Assembly (NCBI GenBank): GCA_019233975.1
Contig: JAFALY010000038.1
Coordinates: 21,638-85,637, forward strand
Origin: Alphaproteobacteria bacterium
GTDB taxonomy: Bacteria > Pseudomonadota > Alphaproteobacteria > UBA9219
DNA length: 64,000 nt
Reading direction: 5' to 3'
Shown here piece after piece: positions 4,267 through 22,119 of this stretch. The first letter of the stretch is position 1. The number at the start of each line of letters is the position of its first letter. The notes under the pieces are model-generated. The model saw only the letters and a list, made by a program, of their open reading frames with translations. It was not told the DNA's origin and did no database searches. The position numbers were made by a program, and so were the translations under genes.

Positions 4267-4944
4267 TTACGCCGCCGTCGATTCCGCCATTGCGCAGCCT
4301 TTGTCGCCATGAACCTCGCTTAGGAAATCCCATAGGGTCTGCGCCGCCTTACGGGCGGCCATAAGGGCTTCTACCTGTCGGTCGGCGGGAATGGCGTCGA
4401 TCAGTTTTTCACAAGTCGCCGAATGATACACATCCGCCGTTTCATGAACCTTGAAGAAAGCCAAAGCCTCCGGCGTTTCAATACCGTAAAAGGACTTCAG
4501 GCCTTCGATCTTGGTTTTGGAGATTTCGGGCGTCTGATACTCGTAGGCGTAAAGGGCGCACAGGCCGCCTTCGTAAGACGAACGGCAGACATCCAGATAG
4601 GTGTCACGTGCCGCCAGTGCCGCCTGACCAAACTGCTGTGCCTTGTGCGAGCCCAGCCCATCCATGAAATCCTGCCACAACTGCGGATGCGGGGCCGAAC
4701 GTCCTGTCGTGCCTTCTTCATCCATCAGATTTTCAAGGATCATCGTGCGCGCTTCAGCGTTATCGCAACGACTATGCAGGCCGCTCACATAACGTGGGAA
4801 AGCTTCCACAAACGGCTGGTACTGTGCGGCATAATGCTGCAATTCCTGCTGCGATAATTCGCCGCGTGTCCATGCCTGGTAAAAGGGGTGAGACAGAAGA
4901 TGCAGATCAGCGATAGTTGCCTTTAACTGTTCAGAAAACGTCAT
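4267..4944 (-). CDS. CADD-family (PqqC/TenA-like, heme-oxygenase-like di-iron) protein, a possible non-canonical pABA synthase homolog
   Basis: 225 aa. HPFYQAWTRGELSQQELQHYAAQY, FPRYVSGLHSRCDNAEAR..ILENLMDEEG, HPQLW, ALYAYEYQTPEI and KVHETADVYH align closely along their length with Chlamydia CADD (CT610), as recalled from memory. Confidence 0.65.
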   Translation of the reverse strand: MTFSEQLKATIADLHLLSHPFYQAWTRGELSQQELQHYAAQYQPFVEAFPRYVSGLHSRCDNAEARTMILENLMDEEGTTGRSAPHPQLWQDFMDGLGSHKAQQFGQAALAARDTYLDVCRSSYEGGLCALYAYEYQTPEISKTKIEGLKSFYGIETPEALAFFKVHETADVYHSATCEKLIDAIPADRQVEALMAARKAAQTLWDFLSEVHGDKGCAMAESTAA

Positions 4945-4985: not shown

Positions 4986-5957
<972 letters not shown>

Positions 5958-6124
5958 CTAAAGTAAGAAAGTACGGGCGAATCCCGAAAAGATTGGATGA
6001 ATTTTGATTACGCCTGAACAGCTTCAGGCGCAAGCCCGTTCCTGTTCACGCCCCGTTCACGCTTGCCCTGACCGTCTATCCCTGTTAGCCATTGATGATC
6101 CTCATTTATTAATGGAATCGTATC

Positions 6125-6877
6125 ATGGCATCGCAGCAGAGCACCGCCGCCACTCAAGATAACAGCCTTCCCATGTTTTACACAGCGCCACGCCCACTCG
6201 ATCGTGTGCGTGATTTGGACACCAAGCTGTCACGCCCCAACGGTTTCGGCTTTGCGCGCAACACGAATGCCATCCCCCTGCTGATTGACGAATTTCCCGC
6301 CGCCTGCGTCCATTATCCCATCGTCTTTGCCGCAGGACCGGCCCCCATTCCGACCGCCGTCGTTGGCCTGAAGAACAACGAGAACCTGTTGGTGAACAGC
6401 AAGGGTGAATGGCTGAACGGTACCTATCTACCGGCCTATGTGCGCCGCTATCCCTTCATTCTGATGGATGACCCGGTGCAGCAGCAATTTGTTTTGTGCA
6501 TCGACGAAGGCAGCGGCCTGTTCGGCAAGCAGGGTGAATTTCCCCTGTTTGAAAATGGTGAACCTTCGGCTTTCACCAAAAACGCGGTGGAGTTTTGCTC
6601 CACCCTGCGTGCGCAAGGTGAAAACACGGACCAGTTCATCAAAGCCCTGCAGCAGCATGATCTGCTGATGCAAAACGATGCGCAAGTCGATCTGGGTAAC
6701 GGCAACAAGATCCAGCTTTCTGGCTTTCTCGTCATCAATCCGCAAAAATTTGATGCCCTGCCTGATGATGTCGTGCTGGACTGGCGCCGTCGCGGCTGGT
6801 TAGGACTTATCTACGCGCACTTCATCTCGTCCCATCGCTGGCAAGGCCTTGTGAACCTGCTACATAGCCCCACATGA
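6125..6877 (+). CDS. SapC family protein
   Basis: 250 aa. The YVRRYPF motif and overall length match the SapC-related family (PF07277-like). Its TGA overlaps the ATG of the next gene (ATGA). Confidence 0.65.
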   Translation: MASQQSTAATQDNSLPMFYTAPRPLDRVRDLDTKLSRPNGFGFARNTNAIPLLIDEFPAACVHYPIVFAAGPAPIPTAVVGLKNNENLLVNSKGEWLNGTYLPAYVRRYPFILMDDPVQQQFVLCIDEGSGLFGKQGEFPLFENGEPSAFTKNAVEFCSTLRAQGENTDQFIKALQQHDLLMQNDAQVDLGNGNKIQLSGFLVINPQKFDALPDDVVLDWRRRGWLGLIYAHFISSHRWQGLVNLLHSPT

Positions 6878-8700
6878 TGAAAAACATTGTACGCGCTCTG
6901 GGCTTGATCATCGCGCTGACGGCAACGCCGGTATTCGCGCAAACAGCGCAACATGGATTGGCCCTGCATGGCACACCGAGATATCCCGCTGACTTTCAGC
7001 ATTTTGATTATGTCAATCCGAATGCTCCAAAGGGCGGTGATATCCACCTGTCTGCCCTTGGCACCTATGACACATTGAACCCCTTTACCTTAAAGGGGTT
7101 GGCGGCGGATGGGGCAGCGTTGCAATTCGAAACGCTGATGGCAGCGTCGATGGATGAACCGATGAGCCAGTATGGCTGGATCGCCGAAAGTGTGACGGTC
7201 GCGCCGGATCACAGTTGGGTTTCTTACAAAATCCGCCCAACTGCGCGTTTTCATGACGGCAGCCCAATTACCGCCGATGATGTGATCTTTTCCTTTGAAA
7301 CACTGCGTGATAAGGGGCACCCCTTCTATCGCAGTTATTACAAAGACGTCGTGAAAGCGGAAAAGCTGGGTGAACGCGAAGTAAAATTTACATTCCGCGA
7401 CACAACGAACACCGAATTGCCGCTCATCATGGGCCAGTTGCCTGTTCTGTGCAAAAAATTCTGGCAGGGCAAGGATTTCGCCGCAACGACTTTGGATCCC
7501 GTCATGGGCAGCGGCCCATATGAAGTAGACAGCATGACGCCGGGACGCACCATTTCCTATAAACGCGTCAAGGATTGGTGGGCGAAAGACCTGCCCATCA
7601 ACCGTGGGCGCTACAATTTCGATGTCATGCGCTTTGATTATTACCGCGACACAACAGTATCGCTTGAAGCGTTTTTGCGCGGCAGCTACGACTTCCGCCT
7701 AGAAAATGTCGCCAAGAACTGGGCGCTCGGTTACGACACGGATGCCGTACGCAACGGCAACATCGTCAAAGACACAATAACCAACCAACTGCCTGCCGGC
7801 ATGCAGGGGTTTGTTTTCAATATGCGGCGCGATCTTTTCAAAGACCGCCGCGTGCGTGAGGCGCTGAATTACGCGTTTGACTTCGAATGGTCTAACAAGA
7901 ACTTCGCCTATAACGCCTATACACGCACACAAAGCTATTTTGAAAACTCTGAACTTGCGGCACGCGGAATGCCCAGCGCGGATGAGCTAAAACTGCTGGA
8001 ACCCTATCGCAACCAGCTCCCGCCTGAATTGTTTACCGAGCCCTTCAAGCTGCCCACGACGGATGGCAGCGGCGACAACCGCGATAATATGCGCAAAGCC
8101 GCTGAGCTGCTGCGCGAGGCCGGATGGACGCTTAAGAACGGTGTTTTGGTTGATGCGAACGGCAAACCGTTGACGTTTGAAATTATAGACGCGGAGCCCA
8201 TGTTTGAACGCTGGACACAGCCCCTGCTCCGCAATCTTGAACGTCTGGGCATTAAGGCGACATTCCGCATTGTTGATGCCGCACAGTTCCAGAACCGCAT
8301 GGACAATTTTGATTTTGACGTCACGGTTTCGGTTTTCTCGCAATCCCTGTCGCCGGGGAACGAGCAGTTTGATTACTGGTCCTCTACCAAAGCCGATGTG
8401 CATGGCAGCCGCAACCTGATTGGCGTACACGATCCCGTTGTAGATGCATTGCTGGAGAAACTGGTACATGCGACATCACGCGAAGATCTGGTGACCGCCT
8501 GTCACGCGCTCGACCGCGTTTTGCTATGGCAATATTACGTGATCCCGCACTGGCATATCGATTCATTTCGTATTGCCTATTGGAACCGATTTGGCCAACC
8601 CGCCACGCACCCGCCCTATGGCTTGGCCGTTGACGACACCTGGTGGGTTGATACCGCCAAGGCCGCCAAACTTGACGCCCAACACGCACGTGGACAATGA
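6874..8700 (+). CDS. ABC-type substrate-binding protein, family 5 (YejA/MppA-like), periplasmic
   Basis: 608 aa with a signal peptide (MMKNIVRALGLIIALTATPVFAQ), SBP_bac_5-like size and motifs. Its start overlaps the SapC stop and its stop overlaps the next ORF's start. Confidence 0.8.
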   Translation: MMKNIVRALGLIIALTATPVFAQTAQHGLALHGTPRYPADFQHFDYVNPNAPKGGDIHLSALGTYDTLNPFTLKGLAADGAALQFETLMAASMDEPMSQYGWIAESVTVAPDHSWVSYKIRPTARFHDGSPITADDVIFSFETLRDKGHPFYRSYYKDVVKAEKLGEREVKFTFRDTTNTELPLIMGQLPVLCKKFWQGKDFAATTLDPVMGSGPYEVDSMTPGRTISYKRVKDWWAKDLPINRGRYNFDVMRFDYYRDTTVSLEAFLRGSYDFRLENVAKNWALGYDTDAVRNGNIVKDTITNQLPAGMQGFVFNMRRDLFKDRRVREALNYAFDFEWSNKNFAYNAYTRTQSYFENSELAARGMPSADELKLLEPYRNQLPPELFTEPFKLPTTDGSGDNRDNMRKAAELLREAGWTLKNGVLVDANGKPLTFEIIDAEPMFERWTQPLLRNLERLGIKATFRIVDAAQFQNRMDNFDFDVTVSVFSQSLSPGNEQFDYWSSTKADVHGSRNLIGVHDPVVDALLEKLVHATSREDLVTACHALDRVLLWQYYVIPHWHIDSFRIAYWNRFGQPATHPPYGLAVDDTWWVDTAKAAKLDAQHARGQ

Positions 8701-10592
8701 AACTTGATCTTACCGCGATAAAACACAACACCGTCAATTGTATTGATCAATTCAGAACATGGCTTTGTGCGCCCCCCTATGAAGGCGTGCCGTGGATGTG
8801 CTGGCTTTATGTCCTGTTTTGCGGCCTGTATGCCGGTGGTGCGCCGTTTCATGGACAGTTGGCATGGTTTGATGACAATGTGCGCATGGTCCAGATACTG
8901 GAATGGATTAACGGCGTTCATGGCTGGTACGACCACGTCCTGATGCGCGTCAATGCGCCCGAGGGTTTCCACACCATTTGGTCGCGTGTTGTCGATGCCC
9001 CGATTGCCGCCGTGATTATCGCCTTTCAGGGGCTTGTCGGTCAGCGGCAAGCGATTGTGGTCGCCGTCACATTGATACCCATGCTGCAAACGCTGATGCT
9101 GTTTTTCGCAGCTCCCTATTTCGCCGCACCGCTCATCGGGCGCGATAAAGCGCAACTGGTCAATCTGTTCGTTCTCTTTACGCAATGCCTGAACCCCGAT
9201 TATTTCACTTTGTCGGGATTTGAAATGGGCGCGGTCAGCCACCACACCTGGTATATCCTCTTAGGGCTAACGCTGCTGGGCAGCGCCATACGGTTGCTGA
9301 CTGAACCCGGCCGCAAGACAACAGCCATTTTTGTTGCGAGTAACGTAACGCTTCTGCTTGTGGGAATTGAAGCATTTCCGCTTCTGGCACTGGCTGCGTT
9401 CCTTCTGGCGGTCATTACGTGGCAAAGACAGGATGCGATGCTGGCGCGCGCGTCAGCCGTGGCGTTCGGGCTTGTTGCCATTATTACGGCCATCGACCAG
9501 CCCATCAACCACCCACCCGCAGAATGGCTGAATGTCTCGTTCTCTGAACCGTCCATTTTTGGTGCGATCATCACCGCCTGTGCTGCCGTATTTTTTCTGC
9601 TGACGGAACAGATCGTCAAGCGGAAACCCGGCAGCCGCCAATGCTTCGTTATGATGACCCTTCTTGCGGCGGCCATGGGCGGTGCCCTGATCGCCCTGTT
9701 CCCTGAACTGTTAAACGGTGCGGCGGCAGGATTGACACCAGAGGAACGCATGCTGGCCCACCGCGAGCACACAGAAGCGGTCGGCCTCTATGCCGTTGCC
9801 ATCAACACGGTTGATTATGTGCGCCTGATCATGCCGTCGGTTATTGCCTTTATCTGGATGCGGCATCTGGTCCGCAACAGGAAAGGCGCCGAAGAACGCC
9901 CTATCTACATATACTTTTACGGGTTGGTGATTATCACATTCATCTACGCGTCCATTTTCTCACGCCTGGTTTTCTATATGGCGCTAAGCGACAGCGTCGT
10001 TCTGATGCATCTCTGGCTGCATACTGCGGCCAAGATGAAAGACGACCAGAATGCGAGCCTGAAGAAGTTTTTACTGTATGTTTTTTTAGGGCCGCTGTGG
10101 ATGTTGATTGTCCCCGCCGCGAATTACAACAGCGGCTTTGGCGACAAGGTTCTGATGTTCCCCGCCAAAAAGCAATTCGGCAAACAAACCTGTGACATGA
10201 CCGGTATCGCCGAATATCTGCATTTCCATTACAGCAACGACAAAACGATTATGGTGCAGATGTACACGTCGGATAAGTTTCTGTATTGGACAGACCTGAA
10301 AGTCTATTTTCTGGCGAATTTTCCATCCCAGAACAAATTCATCAATGCACGACGGTTTTACATGACAAAAGACGCCGATATAGCGCACACGATTGCGACC
10401 GAAGGCCATGTAGATTTGGTCGCGGTCTGTCAGGATGACGTCAAACTGGGCGCTGATACGGCCTTTGCAAACAGCCTGCTACACAACAAGACATTTGAAC
10501 AACAACTGACGACAGGCGAAATACCGTCATGGCTGAAGCCAGTGCGAATGCAAATGGCTTCGCCCTATTTACTGTTTGAAGTTGTGAAGTAA
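8697..10592 (+). CDS. large polytopic inner-membrane protein of unknown function (about 12-13 TM helices plus a 150-aa C-terminal soluble domain; possible GT-C-type glycosyltransferase)
   Basis: 631 aa with many hydrophobic helices. The first loop carries FDDNVRMVQ, a DD motif resembling GT-C first-loop acidic motifs. It is translationally coupled (ATGA) to the preceding SBP. The ORF itself is secure, but the functional call is speculative. Confidence 0.55.
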   Translation: MKLDLTAIKHNTVNCIDQFRTWLCAPPYEGVPWMCWLYVLFCGLYAGGAPFHGQLAWFDDNVRMVQILEWINGVHGWYDHVLMRVNAPEGFHTIWSRVVDAPIAAVIIAFQGLVGQRQAIVVAVTLIPMLQTLMLFFAAPYFAAPLIGRDKAQLVNLFVLFTQCLNPDYFTLSGFEMGAVSHHTWYILLGLTLLGSAIRLLTEPGRKTTAIFVASNVTLLLVGIEAFPLLALAAFLLAVITWQRQDAMLARASAVAFGLVAIITAIDQPINHPPAEWLNVSFSEPSIFGAIITACAAVFFLLTEQIVKRKPGSRQCFVMMTLLAAAMGGALIALFPELLNGAAAGLTPEERMLAHREHTEAVGLYAVAINTVDYVRLIMPSVIAFIWMRHLVRNRKGAEERPIYIYFYGLVIITFIYASIFSRLVFYMALSDSVVLMHLWLHTAAKMKDDQNASLKKFLLYVFLGPLWMLIVPAANYNSGFGDKVLMFPAKKQFGKQTCDMTGIAEYLHFHYSNDKTIMVQMYTSDKFLYWTDLKVYFLANFPSQNKFINARRFYMTKDADIAHTIATEGHVDLVAVCQDDVKLGADTAFANSLLHNKTFEQQLTTGEIPSWLKPVRMQMASPYLLFEVVK

Positions 10593-10618
10593 CCTGCGGA
10601 AAATCAGAAGTGGAAAGA

Positions 10619-11038
10619 TTATGCCGCCGCGGCAACCTCAACACAGGCCAGCTTGACCTGTGCGGCCTCAATCGCCTTTTCAAGACGCATACGCTCGGCA
10701 TCCGACTTCGCCAAGGCGATATCGTCATGCAGCTGGGCAAGCGCCTGTACAACCGCCGCGCGATCGATGGATGAAACCGCCACGGCTTCTTCGGCCAAAA
10801 TGGCGCAACGCGTGGCGCTCACTTCCGCAAACCCCCTGGAGACAAACAACCGTTCGGAAATGGTCGTTTCATCGCTTTCGTAAACATTGATAACGCCGGG
10901 GCGCAGCGTCGTAATCATCGGTGCATGGCCAGCCAGAACGCCATAATCCCCCTCACCACCCGGCAAAGTGACCATAACGACCGGCTTGCTGAGCAGCAGC
11001 TTTTCCGGCGAAACAAGTTCCAACTGAAAGGCGGTCAT
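10619..11038 (-). CDS. atpC: F0F1 ATP synthase epsilon subunit
   Basis: 139 aa, MTAFQLELVSPEKLL..LPGGEGDYGVLAGHAPMITTL. Confidence 0.9.
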   Translation of the reverse strand: MTAFQLELVSPEKLLLSKPVVMVTLPGGEGDYGVLAGHAPMITTLRPGVINVYESDETTISERLFVSRGFAEVSATRCAILAEEAVAVSSIDRAAVVQALAQLHDDIALAKSDAERMRLEKAIEAAQVKLACVEVAAAA

Positions 11039-21595: not shown

Positions 21596-22119
21596 TGTTT
21601 CTGCCTCATTTCTTCAAGATTGATAGCATAAATGCATTCGTTGTCTTCGTTGCCGTCCGGCCAAATCATCGGTTCGTTATGCGTGAATTGAAAACCAGCC
21701 GCAAGTATGGCCTTACGTGACCCCTCGTTCCCGGCACGGTGCGTTACAATAACGCGTTTCCATGCCCGATGACCGAGAGCCCAATGAATGCAAGCCTGAT
21801 ACATCGGAACCGACAGGCCGCGTCCCCTATAGTCAGGTTTAATGTAATGCGCGACAACCGCACCGGGGTATTCGCCAGAGGGATCATCTTTCCAGGTAAT
21901 TATGCCAATCAGTCCGACAATTACGCCGTTATCCATTAACCCAAAGAAACAGCGGTCTTCGCCGAAAAGCACACTACGCCATTCATCCGGCCCACGTTTC
22001 ACTTCGTTTTCGTACTTGGATAGAAAGACCGAAGGATGGTCGCGCAACGCCTCCAGCCTGATCTGTGAGGCCTGAACAAGATCGCCGTCACTGAGGGCGC
22101 GTACAATACAAGCCATCAT
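21592..22119 (-). CDS. GNAT family N-acetyltransferase
   Basis: About 175 aa from the MM at 22119. A GNAT motif region (..HYIKPDYRGRGL..) is present. Its start overlaps the stop of the upstream small ORF (ATGA) and its stop overlaps the lpd start. The ORF-track extension to 22320 is probably spurious. Confidence 0.65.
   Translation of the reverse strand: MMACIVRALSDGDLVQASQIRLEALRDHPSVFLSKYENEVKRGPDEWRSVLFGEDRCFFGLMDNGVIVGLIGIITWKDDPSGEYPGAVVAHYIKPDYRGRGLSVPMYQACIHWALGHRAWKRVIVTHRAGNEGSRKAILAAGFQFTHNEPMIWPDGNEDNECIYAINLEEMRQKQ

Follow-up and report, generated by a model that had tools for sequence, protein, structure and literature searches.

Contig JAFALY010000038.1 of an alphaproteobacterium of the UBA9219 lineage (assembly GCA_019233975.1) contains, in the 64,000-nucleotide stretch analysed here as a whole (positions 21,638 to 85,637 of the forward strand; hereafter the window), an operon of three genes for a SapC-family protein, a periplasmic binding protein of the YejA type and a polytopic membrane protein of 631 amino acids (aa). 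No gene for an ATP-binding cassette (ABC) permease or ATPase accompanies the binding protein. The locus raises the question of what the binding protein does there, and whether it serves the membrane protein, as an earlier sequence-only reading had proposed. The evidence points to two modules. SapC forms the conserved unit together with the binding protein. The membrane protein, which belongs to the STT3/AglB/PglB superfamily as a divergent member, probably joined this pair once, in a single lineage. The probability of this two-module explanation is roughly two in three (0.68). The three genes are as follows.

6125-6877, + strand: SapC-family gene, open reading frame (ORF) of 250 aa
6874-8700, + strand: YejA-type family-5 binding-protein gene, ORF of 608 aa; its start overlaps the SapC stop (ATGA)
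8697-10592, + strand: STT3/AglB-like membrane-protein gene of the GT-C glycosyltransferase fold, 631 aa; its start overlaps the binding-protein stop (ATGA)

Both junctions of the operon are 4-bp ATGA overlaps. They were read directly as CACATGATGAAA and GGACAATGAAAC, and together with the ORF coordinates they confirm the three-gene operon of the sequence-only reading. The first ORF matches the SapC family PF07277 with an E-value of 3.4e-66 (223.4 bits, with the Pfam gathering cut-off at 28.9, over profile positions 7-220 of 220) and has the proposed YVRRYPF motif at residues 105-111. The second ORF matches PF00496 SBP_bac_5 with an E-value of 1.1e-68. Its relatives with solved structures are YejA of S. 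meliloti (7z8e, E 2.3e-165, residues 26-594), YejA of E. coli (~1e-153) and MbnE (5icq, 1.4e-134). The Pfam match and the full-length homology to 7z8e agree with its proposed identity as a YejA-like periplasmic binding protein. A Sec signal peptide is predicted at its N-terminus, as read from the translation.

6874..6939, + strand: predicted Sec signal peptide of the binding protein, MMKNIVRALGLIIALTATPVFA, with cleavage before QT

The absence of ABC genes beside the binding protein, which had also been described, extends beyond its immediate neighbours. A six-frame motif scan found neither the ABC ATPase signature nor the permease EAA motif in the whole window, and neither was found in 382 kb around 23 loci with the orthologous SapC-binding-protein pair. 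The regular expressions used for these scans recovered true ABC ATPases in control loci. The nearest homologues of the binding protein in cultured bacteria are from Azospirillum (55% identity), plasmids of R. etli (45%) and Methylobacterium (46%, in two tandem copies). Motif scans detected no ABC motif within 7-8 kb of these homologues. The PLSDB annotation around the three is sparse, and most of the ORFs picked in the high-GC Azospirillum locus gave no Pfam match. In Methylobacterium bullatum (L092), the tandem YejA-like genes are located at 7001-8761 and 8812-10617; they are 46% and 44% identical to that of the window, and there is no ABC motif within 7 kb. A stretch of 64 kb without any ABC-transporter ATPase signature is itself unusual for an alphaproteobacterial chromosome segment of such length.

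The SapC-side search, which combined a metagenome scan with look-ups, gave 83 loci. SapC homologues of at least 58% identity were treated as orthologues. They are abundant, with more than 120 clusters at 58-81% identity. A binding-protein orthologue (62-83% identity) lies directly downstream of SapC in 30 of the 33 orthologue loci with at least 500 bp of downstream sequence. The STT3-like gene is present in only three of the 18 orthologue loci with at least 4.3 kb downstream. Neighbour clustering showed that the SapC-binding-protein pair keeps its order in at least five flanking contexts, and that a convergent gene usually comes next. Where a SapC homologue has 48% identity or less, the binding protein never accompanies it in the surveyed loci. 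The binding protein is equally conserved without the membrane enzyme as with it (62-76% identity). The frequent pairing, the varied flanks and the rarity of the STT3-like gene indicate that the conserved unit is SapC plus the binding protein.

In the neighbour-joining tree of the binding protein, the loci bearing the STT3-like gene cluster in an mdh-linked lineage, one member of which (L110) does not have the gene. This clustering fits a single gain of the STT3-like gene followed by losses. Relatives in this lineage (L001/L002, L005, L007 and L098) share one gene order: mdh on the minus strand; SapC, the binding protein, a GT9 glycosyltransferase and the STT3-like protein, all on the plus strand; a convergent polytopic protein; and mfd. 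The GT9 gene overlaps the start of the STT3-like gene in these loci. In L005, a 170-aa ORF and gaps of ~80-100 bp are found between the binding protein and GT9. The convergent protein, of 418-441 aa and without a Pfam match, is found wherever the GT9-STT3-like cassette is present. It may supply the cassette with a third component, for example a flippase, polymerase or further GT-C enzyme.

L001, 11869-13194, - strand: convergent polytopic protein, no Pfam match
L005, 10076-11383, - strand: the same
L007, 4840-6096, - strand: the same
L098, 15647-16954, - strand: the same

The GT9 gene and the gene for the 441-aa membrane protein were looked for in the window, and both are absent. The closest relative of the window, L099, has the arrangement of the window; the identities between the two are 81% for SapC, 83% for the binding protein, 60% for the membrane protein and 93% for mdh. 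Between the window and L001, they are 80% for mdh, 86% for sucC, 72% for the binding protein, 64% for SapC and 46% for the membrane protein. The most distant member of the window's subclade of STT3-like proteins, P0012 in L003, stands without SapC or the binding protein and near a GT28-like protein. Upstream of P0012 (L003 4604-9724), there are a 780-aa protein without a Pfam match, a 434-aa protein with a weak match to monogalactosyldiacylglycerol synthase/GT28 and a divergent 453-aa metallophosphoesterase-like protein. This region could be another glycolipid or glycan context for the enzyme.

Conservation of the gene trio outside this genome had been named as a check, and the outcome is divided. 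The trio is kept beyond the genome of the window, but within one lineage, in three of 18 loci and with a single gain, and shared ancestry explains this as well as functional coupling does. The ATGA coupling would point to co-expression in the lineage of the window, yet it amounts to one evolutionary event. The proposed service of the binding protein to the membrane enzyme finds no support here: the enzyme is missing from 15 of the 18 loci, GT9 intervenes in the sister loci, and no orthologue of the binding protein was found in 80 loci of the wider STT3-like family described below.

The identity of the membrane protein came from the profile of this wider family and from a fold search; direct searches with the ORF gave no match in Pfam, NCBIfam or the PDB sequences. 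The AlphaFold2 model, built on a 12-sequence alignment, has a mean predicted local distance difference test (pLDDT) score of 72.7 and a predicted template modelling score of 0.71. It shows ~13 membrane helices and a C-terminal alpha/beta domain of ~130-150 aa, in agreement with the 12-13 transmembrane (TM) segments and the ~150-aa soluble domain predicted earlier. In the Foldseek search with this model, all 21 matches at E <= 1e-3 are AglB, STT3, PglB or DPY19. Transporter folds appear only at E > 0.2, with TM-scores of ~0.1, and the identity of a transporter is rejected. The earlier suggestion of a GT-C enzyme, made from the DD motif in the first external loop (FDDNVRM, residues 58-64), was thus correct and is now narrowed to the STT3/AglB type by the fold and profile matches.

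The profile of 67 family sequences matches the C-terminal domains of AfAglB-S1 (E 2.6e-9) and AfAglB-S2 (E 1.9e-7). Twenty-nine of the 67 members match the NCBIfam model TIGR04154 archaeo_STT3 (best E 6.9e-11) and five match PF22627 AglB_core-like, all far under the curated cut-offs (450 bits for TIGR04154). The window protein itself has no match to PF02516 STT3 or to the NCBIfam STT3 models. The fold and the family profile place the membrane protein in the STT3/AglB/PglB superfamily as a divergent member, whose minimal C-terminal domain, predicted to be periplasmic, is like that of AglB-S.

10194..10589, + strand: C-terminal globular domain, predicted to be periplasmic, ~residues 500-631, homologous to the minimal AglB-S C-terminal domain

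In archaeal AfAglB, the catalytic motifs are two DXD motifs (G-N-D47 and D161-H162-H163), TIXE (T-I-A-E360), and WWDYG (D552) and DK (K618) at the peptide site (PMC8342417). D161 and H163 bind the metal, H81 and R426 are at the phosphate site, and R426 is described as "close to the phosphate site" (PMC8342417). The corresponding positions in the window protein are listed below, where EL denotes an external loop.

8871..8876, + strand: putative equivalent of the first DXD, D59-D60 in EL1 (FDDNVRM), from its position after TM1 and colinearity
9237..9245, + strand: putative second DXD equivalent in EL2, with H182-H183, (G/S)-H182-H183 in the subclade; counterpart of AfAglB D161-H162-H163
9765..9776, + strand: candidate TIXE/SVSE equivalent, E357-H358-T359-E360 in EL5, with spacing colinear with AfAglB E360
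9963..9965, + strand: putative phosphate-site Arg, R423, equivalent of AfAglB R426 by colinearity
10260..10274, + strand: WWDYG position, M522-Y523-T524-S525-D526; the motif is not conserved

Column statistics were taken from 67 aligned sequences, 54 of the wider family and 13 of the subclade and intermediates. D59 is invariant (67/67). The wider family has D-x-D-D at this site, with the middle Asp in 54/54, and the window protein has W-F-D59-D60. For the second DXD, the wider family retains D in 52/54, the first H in 54/54 and the second H in 52/54. The subclade and intermediates show (G/S)-H-H in 12 of 13 and H-H-H in the thirteenth; that is, the subclade of the window keeps the His pair and has the Asp replaced by Ser or Gly. 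E360 is conserved in 64/67. The wider family has x-(I/V)-x-E-A-x-P here, with x-(I/V)-x-E in 52/54; the EL5 motif of the window protein keeps the Glu and lacks the T-I residues, which pair with the backbone of the sequon. Arg occupies the R423 column in 66/67, including all 54 of the wider family. The spacing of D59, H182/H183, E360 and R423 is colinear with that of AfAglB D47, D161/H163, E360 and R426, and these residues are probably equivalent.

The peptide side of the protein is different. The program hhalign pairs WDYGN of AfAglB-S1 with Y523-K527, and HMMER alignments agree. The WWDYG position in the wider family is x-I-(D/N)-E-G. At the DK position, VDAAKFF of AfAglB-S1 corresponds to INARRFY in the window protein, IDAKxFY in the subclade consensus and lDavafF in the wider family, with no DxxK. 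On the basis of these alignments, the donor and metal side appears largely retained and the Ser/Thr(+2) pocket appears lost. Across 12 subclade sequences of 39-48% pairwise identity, 82 columns are invariant, some of them in the external loops and in the C-terminal domain. Such constraint speaks against a decaying pseudo-enzyme.

The STT3-like family is large. A word-indexed protein search returned 12 full-length relatives at 39-48% identity besides the window protein itself, annotated as hypothetical. At E <= 1e-3, an exhaustive search with a hidden Markov model (HMM) returned 2,807 cluster representatives, and 1,829 were left at E <= 1e-10; most are 600-650 aa long and matched end to end. 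The word-indexed search had understated the size of the family; a rerun with a wide alignment added almost nothing. The scans of genomes are limited by their pattern-based search. A scan of the genome collection with subclade patterns gave no match, and a scan of one genome per GTDB species with patterns from a 14-sequence subset gave 168 confirmed matches, of which 80 loci were kept. The titles of all 80 are alphaproteobacterial or unclassified proteobacterial. Devosia, Alsobacter and Methylobrevis are among the cultured carriers, and Arsenicitalea is also represented.

The neighbours of the wider family are not uniform. The commonest are found in at most 15 of the 80 loci, mostly owing to Devosia synteny, and no SapC or GT9 neighbour was seen in the 80. 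The sole binding-protein match among them is a distant SBP_bac_5 relative in L054 (24% identity), which is not an orthologue. One member, P0168 (762 aa; L180 9001-11289), has a GtrA domain (PF04138) at its N-terminus. Proteins of the GtrA type are found with GT-C enzymes whose substrates are polyprenyl-monophosphate sugars. The fusion is a hint about the donor, not proof. The P0168 gene is followed in L180 by an acyltransferase-3/HGSNAT-like gene. Some metagenome-assembled genomes (MAGs) have two or three paralogues on separate contigs: JABDFY01 (L009, L014 and L023), JANRKK01 (L010 and L011) and JARLJD01 (L020 and L022). This suggests several acceptor or donor specificities per cell. Another apparent fusion, P0019 (868 aa), joins a GT9-like N-terminus to an STT3-like protein of the subclade; the linker resembles out-of-frame translation, and the fusion may be an artefact of assembly or a frameshift rather than real.

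These observations can be combined as follows. The first module would be SapC and the secreted YejA-type protein, a bicistronic pair conserved across a large group of uncultured Alphaproteobacteria and apparently never placed beside ABC genes. As a working assumption, the periplasmic ligand of the binding protein is peptide-like, and SapC is a soluble, probably cytoplasmic partner of this protein. The second module would be the 631-aa protein, as a divergent member of an unannotated alphaproteobacterial branch of STT3/AglB/PglB. We infer that it is most likely an active metal-dependent glycosyltransferase, which uses a polyprenyl-phosphate-linked sugar or glycan as donor at the periplasmic face. 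The residues for donor and metal (D59/D60, H182/H183, E360 and R423) appear to be kept, and the acceptor side appears to be rewired by the loss of WWDYG, DK and the Asp of the second DXD. Due to these losses, glycosylation of the Asn-X-Ser/Thr sequon is unlikely. The second module was probably gained in one event in the mdh-linked lineage, when a cassette of GT9, the STT3-like gene and the convergent membrane protein arrived downstream of the binding-protein gene. In the lineage of the window, it is likely that only the STT3-like gene was left at the locus, translationally coupled to the binding-protein gene. In the sister genomes, the STT3-like enzyme would work with the GT9 enzyme and the further membrane protein.

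Several points weigh against this two-module explanation. The genome, of which 64 kb was seen, could encode permeases for the binding protein at another site. The metagenomic loci are not fully independent samples. The STT3-like gene is coupled to the binding-protein gene by ATGA in both the window and L099, and the two genes may be co-expressed and linked in a lineage-specific manner. Loss of the Asp in the second DXD could mean altered or lost metal binding, and hence inactivity. The catalytic equivalences come from profile alignments, colinear spacing and a model of medium confidence (pLDDT 72.7). The pLDDT is below 50 at residues 76-94 (EL1), at 164-168 and 173-183 (EL2, ending at H183) and at 357-372 (EL5, covering E360).

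Among the alternatives, the most plausible is that the binding protein is an ordinary YejA which feeds a distant importer of the YejBEF type, and that SapC and the STT3-like gene are mere neighbours in a compact housekeeping region. It is partly compatible with the two-module explanation and differs only on whether SapC matters. The very high similarity to characterised YejA proteins fits it, as does strong purifying selection on the binding protein (71-72% identity, against 78-80% for mdh and 45-48% for the membrane protein). Orphan binding proteins that share a distal permease are common in general, and the homologues in Azospirillum, R. etli and Methylobacterium are also without adjacent ABC motifs. 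However, pairing across at least five flanking contexts is not expected of chance neighbours, and its absence from SapC homologues of 48% identity or less makes it specific to the orthologue group. An ordinary YejA is possible, if somewhat unlikely. A single functional trio, in which the binding protein delivers or senses a peptide-like ligand for the GT-C enzyme or is itself the acceptor, is doubtful. It would account for the ATGA coupling of all three genes in the window and L099, for their adjacency on the same strand in six loci and for the predicted periplasmic location of both the binding protein and the C-terminal domain of the enzyme. The established peptide binding of YejA-type proteins would fit it as well. 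Likewise, STT3-type enzymes act on peptides (PMC8342417). Against this stand the 15 of 18 loci without the enzyme, the confinement of the enzyme to one tree cluster and so to one independent event, and GT9 intervening in four sister loci, in L005 with the 170-aa ORF and the gaps as well. None of the 80 wider-family loci has SapC, their sole binding-protein match is the distant one in L054, P0012 of the subclade stands without either gene, and the binding protein is equally conserved where the enzyme is missing.

The function of the enzyme may also be different from the one preferred here. A canonical bacterial N-oligosaccharyltransferase (OST), with the function of PglB or AglB, would be consistent with OSTs as the best fold matches and with the retention of D59, E360 and R423, but M-Y-T-S-D stands in place of WWDYG, the DK position has N-A-R-R in the window protein and D-A-K in the subclade consensus, and the Asp of the second DXD is Ser or Gly in the subclade. 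The scores of the family are far under the curated cut-offs (450 bits for TIGR04154), with no match at all for the window protein, and this function is extremely improbable. A hydrolase that releases free glycan of a lipid-linked donor to the periplasm, or a structural relative devoid of catalytic activity, would explain why motifs of the peptide site are lost together with the Asp while donor-site residues are kept. OSTs are able to hydrolyse lipid-linked oligosaccharide in the absence of acceptor (PMC8342417). The 82 invariant columns in 12 subclade sequences argue instead for a constrained active site and a specific binding partner, and the hydrolase or dead relative is unlikely. Finally, the large alphaproteobacterial STT3/AglB branch might have been retargeted to a non-sequon acceptor, with the enzyme of the window recruited to the SapC-YejA module, whose binding protein would present a peptide or itself. 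This combination is quite improbable; if true, it would be a binding-protein-assisted system of periplasmic glycosylation without an ABC transporter.

Returning to the two-module explanation, the STT3-like protein can be compared with characterised glycosyltransferases. It shares the GT-C fold with archaeal AglB (AfAglB-S1, AglB-S2 and AfAglB-L; CAZy GT66), with ~13 TM helices and long EL1 and EL5, and the C-terminal globular domain of the family matches that of AglB-S at the sequence level. The wider family also shares with AfAglB the Asp-His-His second motif, the TIxE-like Glu, the phosphate-site Arg and their colinear spacing. In contrast to AglB, the window protein is bacterial (alphaproteobacterial), WWDYG and DK/MI are not conserved, and no curated model reaches its cut-off. 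In the subclade of the window, the Asp of the second motif is Ser or Gly and the first DxD Asp is Trp. No N-glycosylation gene cluster was found near the gene among the ORFs scanned to ~53 kb. PglB of Campylobacter is a weaker match than AglB and STT3; it has WWDYG and MI and a pgl locus for glycan assembly, whereas the window protein has neither. DPY19 C-mannosyltransferase is eukaryotic, has a different luminal domain and shows no sequence-level relationship to the window protein.

The GtrA/GtrB/GtrC and ArnC/ArnE-F/ArnT systems also have a GT-C enzyme at the periplasmic face, which receives a polyprenyl-phosphate sugar from a cytoplasmic glycosyltransferase. The GtrA fusion of P0168 and the sister loci with a cytoplasmic GT-B enzyme beside the GT-C enzyme resemble this arrangement. 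The GT-B neighbours of subclade members are GT9 in L001, L005, L007 and L098 and GT28-like in L003. In these systems, however, the partner is GT2, not GT9, and the GT-C enzyme here is STT3-like, not GtrC- or ArnT-like. There is no GtrA or GT2 among the window ORFs scanned to ~53 kb.

To our knowledge, bacterial STT3 homologues have been described only as PglB, mainly from Epsilonproteobacteria and some Deltaproteobacteria. There is no Pfam or NCBIfam model for the STT3-like family, and a literature search on alphaproteobacterial STT3/PglB homologues found no description. Within the OST superfamily, these proteins form a new bacterial branch whose acceptor site is altered. The data do not support the trio as a new kind of system, and the apparent service of the binding protein to the GT-C enzyme is probably an accident of gene order. 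If active, the family would add a new class of glycosylation in the periplasm to a major group of bacteria, and it would be a natural experiment on how the OST scaffold changes acceptor specificity. Since cultured Devosia carry members, the question is directly testable. The SapC-YejA pair, in turn, is a handle on the SapC family and on a YejA-type protein kept without an adjacent transporter.

The binding protein is a full-length relative, with a predicted signal peptide, of the binding proteins of the YejABEF importer for peptides and microcin C (S. meliloti 7z8e and E. coli 7z6f) and of MbnE. There is no adjacent yejBEF in the window or the 23 orthologous loci; a SapC-family partner is found instead. 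MbnE in methanobactin (mbn) operons is, as far as we know, likewise not followed by permease genes.

The SapC protein of the window has no signal peptide or TM segment, and its structure model is that of a soluble protein of the alpha/beta type. Identity with its namesake, the polytopic ABC permease of the SapABCDF peptide transporter, is ruled out by this model and by the lack of a match to BPD_transp_1. The founder of PF07277 is SapC of the sapCDEF locus for S-layer secretion in Campylobacter fetus. A literature search on the function of the SapC family found nothing relevant. The window SapC is a clear member of this family. It differs from the founder in being paired with a periplasmic binding protein, and it has no type I secretion system or giant protein as a partner.

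Other alphaproteobacterial SapC homologues (37-46% identity) echo the surface-protein context of the founder, as they lie after genes for ~4,000-5,400-aa surface- or adhesin-like proteins. On large replicons of Azospirillum, Thalassospira and Agrobacterium, which are extra-chromosomal and listed as plasmids in PLSDB, SapC homologues directly follow giant surface-protein genes of ~4,700-5,400 aa, whose annotations are filamentous haemagglutinin-like, autotransporter-repeat or hypothetical. The SapC homologue of Aminobacter has a 4,159-aa gene ~4 kb upstream, with six small genes between, tail-fiber-like genes among them. The SapC homologue of Azospirillum (46%) sits on another replicon than the binding-protein homologue. 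These contexts suggest a general link of the SapC family to large secreted surface proteins.

L090, 1-8714: SapC near a giant surface-protein gene
L093, 1-6741: the same
L094, 1-6771: the same
L095, 1-6744: the same

Marine SapC homologues (42-46% identity) share another context in seven loci (L145, L146, L147, L149, L153, L159 and L162; SapC at ~10001-10730). On the + strand upstream are ORFs of ~261, 644, 352 and 270 aa, and a convergent ORF of ~590-650 aa is downstream. No binding-protein gene is present in these seven loci.

The surroundings of the operon in the window are as follows.

4986-5948, - strand: mdh, divergent, upstream of the SapC gene
5949..6124, + strand: mdh-SapC intergenic region, presumed promoter region of the operon
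10619-11038, convergent to the membrane-protein gene: atpC, 26 bp past the membrane-protein stop

The convergent atpC at this distance agrees with the earlier reading. A consensus scan found no sigma-70 site in 5949..6124, and its role as a promoter is therefore presumed. In the scan of the operon for promoters and terminators, nothing bearing on operon structure exceeded the shuffled expectation. The part of the window scanned with Pfam (0.1-53 kb) is densely packed, and its scanned ORFs have housekeeping roles: sucCD, the ATP synthase operon, the pyruvate dehydrogenase complex, enolase, CTP synthase, PBP1, RNase E and others.

Between sucC and mdh, the window has a TENA/PqqC-like gene at 4267-4944. 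At this position, other relatives have a soluble protein of 405-416 aa without a Pfam match. L099 has an extra polytopic membrane protein of 627 aa between sucC and mdh (7002-8885, - strand). This protein ends in a soluble domain and contains the motif KWDDFSHW; it gave no Pfam match and was not detected as an STT3-like relative by the family HMM. The sucCD-mfd region looks like a hotspot for envelope genes.

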